From IMG/VR virus record IMGVR_UViG_2695420564_000008: a stretch of DNA of 4,595 bases. The stretch is one strand, 5' to 3'. Below the pieces are notes generated by a model. That model did not search any database. It was not told the origin of the DNA and saw only the letters and a program-made list of their open reading frames with translations. The DNA comes from a virus. Lineage: Duplodnaviria; Heunggongvirae; Uroviricota; Caudoviricetes. Positions 1,626-4,595 of this stretch are shown here, piece after piece. The position numbers and the translations under genes were made by a program. Every line of letters begins with the position of its first letter. Position 1 is the stretch's first letter.

Positions 1626-1640
1626 GCCTGAGTATCAGGC
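1626..1640 (+). other. Short palindrome GCCTGA-GTA-TCAGGC followed by a T-rich run (terminator-like or operator-like)
   Basis: Perfect 6-bp inverted repeat with a 3-nt loop, followed by TCTATATTTTT (1641-1651). A wider imperfect inverted repeat CTGATA (1610-1615) / TATCAG (1633-1638) surrounds it. It sits immediately upstream of the TTG at 1650. Confidence 0.3.
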
Positions 1641-1649
1641 TCTATATTT

Positions 1650-2387
1650 TTGAGCACAATAATTCACCAGTATGAAGGCGTACTCTATCAAGCGGGAAAC
1701 TTGCCACCAGACCACGGCAGCAAAGACATAGAAAACTTATTATTTGGTTCTATTATTTCTACTAGAGAAGATACCGAAAGATATCTAAATGAAGGTGTTT
1801 TCGATGGTATGAAGTGCTTAGCAAGTGGATTATGGCACGTTCCTAGTGATTTCATTGCTTCCCTTGCAGGGGTTAAGAGAGCCCCTGACATTCCACTCAT
1901 ATTCTCACCAGCATATATAAAAAAAGAACTAGATATCACATCAGGACGTTACTTTTTCTACGATTTTCGCGAACATGATACCACCGTATCGTCTGTGGAA
2001 GATTTGTATATATCAAGACCGTGGGTTGAATATATAGCTGAAAGCATGGATAAAAATCAGCCAATACCCAGCATACTCCATTTGGGTTCACACGATCTTT
2101 ATGAAAAGGAATTTAAAAACATAGAGCATGGAAATAGAGCACGACATAGCCTGAACCGTGAGAATAGCATTATGGCGTTGATTTATGTGAAACGGCACTA
2201 TCCGGAAGAGTGCAAAGGGAAAAACGGGAAAGAAACCAACGAAGCGTGGGCAAACGCTACGATAGACCACTGGCCACATGTGGGTGGCGATTATGATGAA
2301 CCATCTACAGATTATTTAAAGAAGATCATATCTGACATGGACAGATTGCCGGAAAAACGTACCACGGCAGGAAAGAAGAAATCATGA
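1650..2387 (+). CDS. Hypothetical protein, 245 aa from the TTG start (192 aa if the in-frame ATG at 1809 is used); AT-rich orphan cargo gene
   Basis: Long open frame ending at TGA 2385-2387 in an AT-rich segment, with no overlapping ORF of comparable length on either strand. The start is uncertain: TTG at 1650 has only a weak Shine-Dalgarno-like TCAGG upstream and an in-frame stop lies 6 codons upstream at 1629-1631; the first in-frame ATG is at 1809, preceded by GAAGGTG. No transmembrane segment, signal peptide or catalytic motif recognised by eye. Confidence 0.6.
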   Translation: MSTIIHQYEGVLYQAGNLPPDHGSKDIENLLFGSIISTREDTERYLNEGVFDGMKCLASGLWHVPSDFIASLAGVKRAPDIPLIFSPAYIKKELDITSGRYFFYDFREHDTTVSSVEDLYISRPWVEYIAESMDKNQPIPSILHLGSHDLYEKEFKNIEHGNRARHSLNRENSIMALIYVKRHYPEECKGKNGKETNEAWANATIDHWPHVGGDYDEPSTDYLKKIISDMDRLPEKRTTAGKKKS

Positions 2388-2388
2388 T

Positions 2389-2420
2389 AATAAAATTTAG
2401 TATCGTGACAATAAAATTTA
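2389..2420 (+). promoter_or_regulatory. Tandem direct repeat AATAAAATTTA (2389-2399 and 2410-2420) in the intergenic region upstream of the AlpA-family gene; candidate operator
   Basis: Two identical 11-mers with a 21-bp centre-to-centre spacing (two helical turns), in the 112-bp AT-rich gap between the 245-aa ORF and the AlpA-like gene. TTGAGC (2434-2439) and TTAAAT (2450-2455) hexamers are nearby but with poor spacing, so no promoter is asserted. Confidence 0.3.
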
Positions 2421-2499
2421 CTGTAATTCACTTTTGAGCATGCACACCATTAAATACCCGTAACGAAGCAACAACTATCGCTAAGAGGTTACGGGAAGC

Positions 2500-2703
2500 A
2501 TGAACACCGACACGATTCCTACAAAAGGCTATATCAGACGCTTTCGCCTGGCTGAATTGCTGGGCGTTAGTGTATCCACCATCGACCGTAAAGTAAGAAA
2601 CGGTTCACTACCACGTCCGGTAAAGCTGGGAGAAAAAATAACTGCGTTTGATGCGGTTGAGATTCACAACTGGCTGGCAGAACGCCGCGGGAAGGTGGCC
2701 TGA
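2500..2703 (+). CDS. AlpA-family helix-turn-helix transcriptional regulator (prophage or island regulatory, excisionase-like)
   Basis: 67-aa ORF with ATG at 2500 preceded by AAGAGG/GGGAAG. The translation RLAELLGVSVSTIDRKVRNGSLPRPVKLGEKITAFDAVEIHNWLAERR has the arrangement I associate with AlpA / Phage_AlpA HTH proteins. Its TGA stop (2701-2703) overlaps the next ATG by one base (TGATG). Confidence 0.85.
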   Translation: MNTDTIPTKGYIRRFRLAELLGVSVSTIDRKVRNGSLPRPVKLGEKITAFDAVEIHNWLAERRGKVA

Positions 2704-3134
2704 TGGAAAAGAAAAACCGCCCATTACAGGCGGCTAATTCAGATACTCGCGTATCTGATGTTACGCCCCTTACAAAATCCCTTCAAGCACCAAAGCGCAC
2801 ACCGAAAAAGCATCGTGCCAGAGTCTATATGCTGCGTACTGGTATAGAGGGATGGACAGAAAATGACATTCTTCGCTACTGCCGTCTGTCTTCTGGTCGT
2901 AACTATGCAACAGAGTTAGAACGCCAGCTTGGAATCACTCTGGAGCGTATCGACGAAAAGAATCCTGATGGTATCGGAACACACCTTCGCTACCGTTTCT
3001 CCTGCCGCGGTGATGTTCTGAAAGTGATCACTCATATTAACCATCTTGCGAACATAAATGATCACAACGGACTTTCTCAGCAGGAAATTGCCGACATTCT
3101 GAAACTCTACCCGGACGCGTTTAACGCCGCCTAA
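2703..3134 (+). CDS. Hypothetical protein, 143 aa, basic N-terminal region; translationally coupled to the AlpA-like gene
   Basis: ATG at 2703 overlaps the upstream stop; TAA at 3132-3134. Lys/Arg-rich N-terminus (PKRTPKKHRAR). No family recognised from memory. Confidence 0.7.
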   Translation: MEKKNRPLQAANSDTRVSDVTPLTKSLQAPKRTPKKHRARVYMLRTGIEGWTENDILRYCRLSSGRNYATELERQLGITLERIDEKNPDGIGTHLRYRFSCRGDVLKVITHINHLANINDHNGLSQQEIADILKLYPDAFNAA

Positions 3135-3146
3135 CGGAGACTGAAA

Positions 3147-3980
3147 ATGAACATCGAAAAAAGCAGATTAATTTCTGAGGCCGCCCCTCATCTGAACGCC
3201 TCTCTGGGCACAATTAACGGTAATGAATTTGCCGCAATTGTCCCGGTTATTCCTGGTCACATCGGTGGGCGTGAAACCAATATTGTTAGCGCAAAAGCGT
3301 TACACAAAGCGTTGGGCGTGGGAAAAGACTTCTCTACATGGATCACTGATCGCATCTCTGAATATGACTTCACCATTGGGCACGATTACTCAGTCCATAA
3401 AACAATTTCCCCAAATTTGGGGAAAAGCCCGAATGGCGCGGCTTACAGCAAGATTAAGCAGTCTGGCAGACCCGGCAAAGACTATCTGTTAAGTGTCGGA
3501 ATGGCGAAAGAACTGGCAATGATCGAACGCAATGATCAGGGTCGCGCTATCCGTCGTTATTTCATCCAGTGCGAGGAAGAATTACAGCGTAGCGTGCCTG
3601 AAATCGCCGCCCGCTATCGTCGCCAGCTAAAAGCCCGTATCAGTGCCGCAAACAACTTTAAGCCAATGTGCGATGCGCTGAATATGGCCCGTGCCGAGCA
3701 GGGGAAAACGACGCAGCAACACCACTACACAAACGAGAGCAATATGATTTCTCGTATCGTTCTTGGAGGGCTAACTGCTAAGCAGTGGGCGCGGATAAAT
3801 GGCTATTCTGGCGAACCTCGCGACCATATGAACGCAGAACAGCTTGAGCACCTCTCATATCTCGAAAGCACCAATATCACGTTAATTGATATGGGCATGG
3901 AATATGAGCAGCGCAAAGGAGAACTCACCCGCCTGTCGCAACGCTGGCTCGCCAAGCGTCTGGAGGCGGTCCATGTTTAA
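3147..3980 (+). CDS. Phage antirepressor-like protein with an N-terminal AntA-type domain
   Basis: 277-aa ORF with ATG at 3147 and GGAG 7 nt upstream. The N-terminal region (ALHKALGVGKDFSTWITDRISEYDFTIGHDY ... DYLLSVGMAKELAMIERNDQGRAIRRYFIQCEEEL) matches the signature I recall for AntA/AntB antirepressor N-terminal domains. I cannot assign the C-terminal half. Confidence 0.85.
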   Translation: MNIEKSRLISEAAPHLNASLGTINGNEFAAIVPVIPGHIGGRETNIVSAKALHKALGVGKDFSTWITDRISEYDFTIGHDYSVHKTISPNLGKSPNGAAYSKIKQSGRPGKDYLLSVGMAKELAMIERNDQGRAIRRYFIQCEEELQRSVPEIAARYRRQLKARISAANNFKPMCDALNMARAEQGKTTQQHHYTNESNMISRIVLGGLTAKQWARINGYSGEPRDHMNAEQLEHLSYLESTNITLIDMGMEYEQRKGELTRLSQRWLAKRLEAVHV

Positions 3981-4143
3981 GCCGACAGGAACACCACAAC
4001 CTCAAAAACGCTACAAAGATGCCCACGGAGCACTCGTTACTGTCGAAAGCGTGTCTCACAACCGAGTGACGTTTTATCGCGACGGGTATCAATCGCCATG
4101 CGTACAACCGCTGGCGCGCTTCATGAAGGAGTTCTCTCTTTAG
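3973..4143 (+). CDS. Small hypothetical protein (56 aa), translationally coupled to the antirepressor-like gene
   Basis: ATG at 3973-3975 overlaps the upstream TAA (ATGTTTAA arrangement), with GGAGG 5 nt upstream; TAG at 4141-4143. The ORF track extends this frame back to an ATG at 3886 (85 aa), which would overlap the upstream gene by 95 nt; the coupled start is more parsimonious. No family recognised. Confidence 0.5.
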   Translation: MFKPTGTPQPQKRYKDAHGALVTVESVSHNRVTFYRDGYQSPCVQPLARFMKEFSL

Positions 4144-4240
4144 TCACGCTCACATTACGCGACCAATACTAACAAAACATTAACACTATCTGGCAAAATT
4201 TTGTTCTAAACTTGATCTCAGCGAAATGGCTGCGCCTGAA

Positions 4241-4269
4241 TTGTGATAAAAATCACATTTTTATCACAA
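4241..4269. promoter_or_regulatory. Perfect 12-bp inverted repeat TTGTGATAAAAA-TCACA-TTTTTATCACAA with an embedded CRP-like site TGTGA-N6-TCACA (4242-4257)
   Basis: Directly readable: left arm 4241-4252, spacer TCACA 4253-4257, right arm 4258-4269. The nested TGTGATAAAAATCACA fits the CRP half-site consensus with a 6-bp spacer. It lies about 200 bp upstream of the gapA start. Confidence 0.5.
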
Positions 4270-4285
4270 CTGCCCTTTAAAATTC

Positions 4286-4298
4286 GGGGCGCCGCCCC
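4286..4298. other. GC-rich palindrome GGGGCG-C-CGCCCC (short hairpin or protein-binding site)
   Basis: Near-perfect 13-bp palindrome. On the minus strand it is followed by GAATTTTAAA, giving a weak terminator-like appearance; no T-run follows on the plus strand. Function unclear. Confidence 0.25.
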
Positions 4299-4393
4299 CA
4301 TGTGGTCTCAAGCCCAAAGGAAGAGTGAGGCGAGTCAGTCGCATAATGCTTAGGCACAGGATTGATTTGTCGCAATGATTGACACGATTCCGC

Positions 4394-4421
4394 TTGACGC
4401 TGCGTAAGGTTTTTGTAATTT
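4394..4421 (+). promoter_or_regulatory. Probable gapA proximal promoter: -35 TTGACG (4394-4399), 16-bp spacer, extended -10 TGTAATTT (4414-4421)
   Basis: Hexamers and spacing read directly; a second TTGACA lies at 4379-4384. Consistent with my recollection that gapA has a strong extended -10 promoter, but not verified against the published start site. Confidence 0.55.
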
Positions 4422-4452
4422 TACAGGCAACCTTTTATTCACTAACAAATAG

Positions 4453-4595
<143 letters not shown>

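Follow-up and report, generated by a model that had tools for sequence, protein, structure and literature searches.

Transcription of gapA in Escherichia coli is described as starting from four promoters, P1 at -36, P2 at -153, P3 at -174, and P4 at -245 from the ATG, of which P3 is the one assigned to Crp (Table 1 of Olvera et al. 2009, PMC2759082, citing Charpentier & Branlant 1994). The P3 promoter string given in that source is TCACATTTTTATCGTAATTGCCCTTTAAAATTCGGGGCG, which ends in TTCGGGGCG and opens with TCACA, the right half-site of the CRP box considered here. On glucose, Olvera et al. saw P1 transcripts alone, and P3 is a minor promoter (PMC2759082). Shimada et al. 2011 (PMC3105977) recovered gapA, a known CRP target, by Genomic SELEX and refer to RegulonDB for the E. 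coli gapA CRP site, and PhyloScan places gapA/yeaA among its top cross-species CRP predictions. Kim et al. 2018 (PMC5888115) described class II binding of CRP over the -35 box with Cra downstream at pdhR-aceEF and stated the same interaction for gapA, where Cra overrides CRP.

Here, we analyzed a window of 4,595 nucleotides, the whole stretch of DNA under study, in which the first 43 codons of gapA (4465-4595, + strand, start codon at 4465-4467) are preceded by a palindrome at 4241-4269. The core of this palindrome is very probably an orthologous copy of the already described cAMP-CRP site of gapA P3. With the E. coli site, insofar as it is reported from Charpentier & Branlant 1994 via PMC2759082, it has in common the locus and the distance from the ATG (-223), as well as the right half-site, the flank, the -10 element, the downstream promoters, and a dyad at -41.5. 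The E. coli site reads CGTGATGAAAATCACA followed by TTTTTATCGTAA and forms 9 of 13 arm pairs; the window differs from it in a left half-site that is consensus TGTGA, an A5 spacer, a downstream ATCACAA that completes a palindrome with 13-nt arms, and the loss from the contig of the divergent neighbor msrB. As in class II CRP promoters of the galP1 and melR type, the dimer site lies at -41.5 over the -35 region, with a recognizable -10 and no good -35 hexamer; unlike class II promoters in general, gapA P3 is a minor promoter, upstream of the strong CRP-independent P1 that mainly drives the gene. Because the published P3 is Crp regulated and the geometry matches, we identify the element with the known P3 CRP site. 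Comparison with the reference gapA upstream region, which the original prediction had proposed, thus returned an imperfect version of the element at its native locus with an already described function, and the outcome is a second identification, in a bacterium closely related to E. coli, of a CRP site attributed to gapA P3 some three decades ago and later found again by both SELEX and comparative genomics.

The CRP box and the gapA promoters

Nested within the palindrome, TGTGA-TAAAAA-TCACA at 4242-4257 (TGTGATAAAAATCACA) matches TGTGA-N6-TCACA with 0 mismatches and is the single match in the window at up to one mismatch, against a chance expectation of 0.17. The textbook 22-bp consensus for CRP is AAATGTGATCTAGATCACATTT. 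The 22-mer AATTGTGATAAAAATCACATTT at 4239-4260 agrees with this string at 18 of 22 positions, as a position count and not as weight-matrix log-odds, and its mismatches fall at position 3 and in the central spacer. On the basis of the sequence, TGTGATAAAAATCACA is predicted to be a cAMP-CRP-type site for a dimeric regulator in this organism. A full-text literature search with the string of the E. coli site, GTGATGAAAATCACA, gave no match.

The gapA ATG at 4465-4467 sets the start of the box at -223. When the P3 start mapped in E. coli (-174, PMC2759082) is transferred to the + strand of the window, it falls at 4291, so that the dyad of the box, at 4249.5, lies at exactly -41.5, which would be the class II activation position, given a P3 start taken from E. 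coli. The same dyad is at +29.5 from P4 and -179.5 from P1. From the distances in that table, the P4 start is placed at 4220 (-245) and the P2 start at 4312 (-153), both on the + strand, the latter with its -10 CCCCATGT just upstream. P1 occupies 4394-4429 on the + strand, with its -35 TTGACG at 4394-4399, TGn at 4414-4415, -10 AATTTT at 4417-4422, and +1 at A4429 (-36); these elements are as given in PMC2613000 and the start is also in PMC2759082, and the window is identical to E. coli across the P1 region. A simple sigma-70 scan of the window called none of P1 to P4, all four of which are non-consensus.

We infer that P3 starts at the same place and depends on Crp in this organism as well, both properties being drawn from the E. 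coli literature through a secondary citation. If so, a cAMP-CRP dimer would bind 4242-4257 (within 4239-4260) at the upstream promoter P3 of gapA, where, centered at -41.5 and overlapping the P3 -35 region, it would contact RNA polymerase directly in the class II manner. High cAMP, as on poor carbon sources, would then raise gapA transcription from P3, and the strong constitutive P1, 138 bp downstream of P3, would supply most transcripts on glucose. The CRP box itself belongs to the native msrB-gapA spacer and is unrelated to the inserted island fragment.

Conservation was assessed from an anchor that is unbiased with respect to the box: one genome per species was scanned with the first 35 nt of gapA alone, which yielded 120 loci, and the upstream DNA was then inspected. 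Among the 112 independent genomes with 400 nt upstream of gapA, 86 carry GTGA-N6-TCAC starting between -221 and -227 from the gapA ATG (one at -241), and the pattern has zero matches elsewhere within the 400 nt in the 112 genomes. A further 11 genomes (seven Photorhabdus and one each of Yersinia, Tatumella, Silvania, and Ewingella) have a box with one mismatch at the same position, and those that have none are mostly non-Enterobacterales, plus an endosymbiont. A profile of the 86 orthologues was anchored on the box, which fixes the half-sites; in it, the four central columns of the spacer hold 0.02 to 0.28 bits, and the flanks AAT on the 5' side and (A)TTTT on the 3' side are conserved as in the CRP 22-mer. 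The original prediction of nested CRP half-sites at the correct spacing is thus borne out by a perfect match that is conserved in position.

The -10 of P3, TAAAAT at 4278-4283 on the + strand (-13 to -8), lies inside the published P3 string and keeps a fixed offset from the box in the orthologues: in 63 of the 86, TA...T (TAAAAT or TATATT) starts at 28.5 bp from the dyad, and neighboring offsets score 0 to 10. The constant spacing of box and -10 points to a class II promoter arrangement conserved across Enterobacterales, and this Enterobacterales-wide unit emerges from sampling that is free of motif-based bias.

Native DNA, island DNA, and other regulators

The original prediction left it undecided whether the element belonged to the native gapA region or to the right end of an island. 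E. coli 042 has an integrase-bearing island, an internal piece of which matches positions 1630-4134 with 100% identity; this piece carries a truncated hypothetical gene, an AlpA-like helix-turn-helix (HTH) gene, a further hypothetical gene, an AntA-family gene, and a truncated DUF4222 gene. The match to the 042 island ends at 4134 and the match to native contigs begins at 4133; this junction between the island and the native msrB-gapA spacer, at 4133/4134, is 11 to 12 nt upstream of the expected ATG of msrB, which is absent, and the palindrome lies some 105 bp inside the native DNA. Positions 4148-4470 are matched in 5,426 of 5,426 complete E. coli genomes, at about 94% identity and at the gapA locus with msrB divergent, and all 5,426 have the imperfect palindrome aatCGTGATGAAAATCACAtttttatcGTaat at the same position. 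Two metagenome contigs are 99.4% identical to 4133-4595 and contain the exact 29-mer, with an intact msrB adjoining. Of the two placements, the native one stands and the island right end falls.

Other dimeric regulators were weighed against CRP for the same DNA. Perfect symmetry some 100 bp from island-derived DNA would suit an operator for a repressor encoded by the island, a reading that the original prediction had also entertained; the AlpA-like HTH or AntA-family protein of the island would be a candidate. However, the DNA of the element is native in genomes that lack the island, and island DNA stops at 4133/4134, so that the element is neither the island's right end nor an island operator. 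The 29-mer, moreover, has no second copy in the window at up to 3 mismatches, the regions upstream of the island genes included, and conservation follows the CRP box rather than the 29-mer. With the homology boundary at 4134 and the site present in most Enterobacterales irrespective of the island, we reject an island end or island operator and leave any operator of this kind a very slight probability. A site for FNR, or for another member of the CRP/FNR family, draws on the match of GTGAT-AAAA-ATCAC to TTGAT-N4-ATCAA at 8 of 10 positions. Yet both mismatches fall at the positions that discriminate CRP (G/C) from FNR (T/A), and the window has G/C. So do the 86 orthologues, although these were retrieved by a pattern that requires GTGA-N6-TCAC, and the comparison covers the strict boxes of this kind in 86 of the 112 genomes. 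The published regulator of P3, as PMC2759082 gives it, is also Crp. An FNR site was accordingly rejected, and we consider it extremely improbable that the box serves FNR or a relative in place of CRP. The expectation of a dimeric regulator holds, in the form of a predicted CRP-type site at the native locus.

The outer symmetry of the palindrome

Positions 4241-4269 read TTGTGATAAAAAT-CAC-ATTTTTATCACAA and are perfectly symmetric over 29 bp. The repeat finder returns two arms of 13 nt (4241-4253 and 4257-4269) that are 100% complementary and 3 nt apart, with the loop CAC at 4254-4256 and the axis at 4255; the 12-bp arms and TCACA of the original prediction are the same object. Its claim that such symmetry is rare by chance also stands. 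The element is the longest perfect inverted repeat of the window (loops up to 10 nt), and, at the same loop limit, none of 400 dinucleotide shuffles of the whole window and none of 3,000 shuffles of the 322-nt spacer gave arms of at least 12 nt.

The axis (4255) and the CRP dyad (4249.5) are 5.5 bp apart. A second CRP site within the palindrome was considered and rejected: the mirror image of the box reads TGTGA-N6-TGTGA, with its half-sites in direct repeat and 3 central mismatches, and the palindrome thus holds one CRP site and one orphan half-site. A third TCACA, at 4264-4268, lies 11 bp past the second half-site, in the P3 spacer at -27 to -23, and completes the outer palindrome. Its E. 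coli counterpart is TCGTA, and TCACA is absent from this third position in every other sampled genome.

The source lineage is Escherichia albertii-like, and the perfect 29-bp extension is special to it. From 4148 to 4300, 17 of 153 positions are not those of E. coli, and the 29-mer accounts for four of these (4242 C>T, 4248 G>A, 4266 G>A, and 4267 T>C). Each of the four is a transition that turns a mismatch into a pair, and together they take the arms from 9/13 pairs in E. coli to 13/13. The 29-bp extension depends on the A5 spacer, the T5 flank, and the conserved ATC together with these changed bases. The exact 29-mer is present in the two metagenome contigs and in a second assembly (L126, below), and in a metagenome relative (L124) a T at 4270 lengthens the arms to 15 nt. 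The remaining sampled genomes form 0 to 10 of the 13 arm pairs, and a BLAST search with the low-complexity filter on found no E. coli genome that shares a 28-nt word with 4228-4282.

That all four substitutions in the 29-mer create pairs is the one feature that a conserved CRP site leaves unaccounted for. When the observed number of substitutions was applied at random to the E. coli state, 13/13 pairs were reached in about 1e-4 of 200,000 trials, an estimate made after the fact that takes E. coli for the ancestor, which it is not. Quasi-palindrome (template-switch) mutation hotspots occur in E. coli, and a quasi-palindrome is known to become a perfect repeat by template-switch correction. The present case resembles such hotspots in that an imperfect repeat was made perfect by several changes, two of them adjacent (4266-4267). 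It differs from them in that nothing points to a single event. One of the four changes is present in E. ruysiae and one in E. whittamii, so a stepwise origin is possible and fits equally well. That the E. albertii lineage passed from a quasi-palindrome to a perfect 29- to 33-bp palindrome by something other than drift strikes us as unlikely, whether by a template switch or by selection for a hairpin or cruciform coupling P4 readthrough or supercoiling to CRP control. Studies of quasi-palindrome mutation or leader structure may find the cause of the perfect flanking symmetry of modest interest.

A stronger claim is that the full palindrome of 29 bp (to 33 bp) is itself functional and selected, as an RNA hairpin of the P4 leader that affects stability or readthrough, or as a cruciform that alters the activity of P3/P4, or competes with CRP. 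The P4 start lies upstream of the palindrome, and as RNA the element would be transcribed from P4 only, at +22 to +50 from the start placed at 4220. The predicted hairpin has a free energy of -11 kcal/mol (z of -5.1), against -5.2 for the E. coli version and -13.6 kcal/mol for the 15-nt arms of L124, and the pair-creating transitions, with the simulated frequency given above, point the same way. However, the outer symmetry is missing from every other sampled genome, the probability estimate has the limits already stated, and correction by template switching could perfect the repeat in the absence of selection. The stem is A/U rich and is followed by CUGCCC, with no U-run, so the hairpin is not an intrinsic terminator, and a terminator scan makes no call there; an Rfam search had 0 matches at E-values up to 1. 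Because the outer part is not conserved and terminator and Rfam signals are lacking, we treat the outer symmetry as probably functionless and specific to this lineage. A function of its own for the whole palindrome, under selection, is in our judgment quite improbable. The 29 bp, which had been proposed as the site of a dimeric regulator, probably do not form a separate functional unit, with an axis off the CRP dyad and an outer part that is not conserved outside the lineage; the unit that we retain is the CRP box at 4242-4257.

A longer stem that encloses the palindrome in the P4 leader was also predicted, by pairing of 4228-4240 with 4282-4296 (minimum free energy of -27.4 kcal/mol, z of -3.3), and the lineage differences at 4234, 4238, and 4295 create pairs in it. 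This candidate was rejected: the orthologues form 5.6 of 13 pairs, equal to partners slid by 1 to 3 nt, and the stem, being no better conserved than these controls, speaks against a functional palindrome.

Neighboring elements and the mosaic contig

Several other elements of the spacer came to light. At 4170-4185 on the - strand, TAACAAAACATTAACA forms a TGTTA-N6-TGTTA direct repeat, which we take to resemble an ArcA-type direct repeat. The motif covers -50 to -35 of gapA P4 and lies upstream of msrB in native contexts, and 81 of 113 genomes have it between -292 and -299 from the gapA ATG. At 4286-4298, GGGGCG-C-CGCCCC is a perfect G+C inverted repeat that spans the P3 start just upstream of the P2 -10 (CCCCATGT). 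It is imperfect in E. coli because of an A at 4295, and this is another lineage change that raises symmetry. P2 itself is reportedly sigma-32 dependent. Between P2 and P1, TGTCGCAATGATTGACA at 4355-4386 is a 17-bp palindrome with two unpaired bases flanking the center, and it does not vary among the Escherichia sequences compared. According to Kim et al. 2018 (PMC5888115), gapA has a Cra site downstream of its CRP-dependent promoter. Far from gapA, a stretch of 20 nt in the oppA-oppB spacer (390-409) is 85% complementary to 4236-4255, the region of the left arm of the palindrome, and this is probably a chance A/T-rich match.

The window is the entire NCBI contig CCBU01000303.1 (GCA_000940615.1), with the N's at 1540, 1543, 1544, and 1631 written as A, and it is a mosaic: an A/C-rich, unmatched 83 nt; oppA'-oppB-oppC'; 81 nt; the 2.5-kb fragment of the 042 island; and the gapA upstream region without msrB. 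The junctions lie near 83/84, 1548/1549, 1629/1630, and 4133/4134, and the N's coincide with mosaic junctions. The opp segment shares 99% identity with E. albertii CP030783.2. Positions 1520-1660, which include the 81-nt piece, had no E. coli match, and a database search found no record of the 71-amino-acid open reading frame that results from the oppC fusion. The same mosaic order recurs in a second assembly, GCA_000936005.1 (L126), with add and a major facilitator superfamily (MFS) gene at one end and gapA-yeaD-mipA-yeaG at the opposite end; the order is either a true rearrangement or an assembly artifact common to both assemblies. Within the island fragment, the gap upstream of the AlpA-like gene has two adjacent 19-nt copies at 2381-2420, with starts 21 nt apart (ATCATGATAATAAAATTTA and ATCGTGACAATAAAATTTA), which may serve the island as an operator or promoter repeat.
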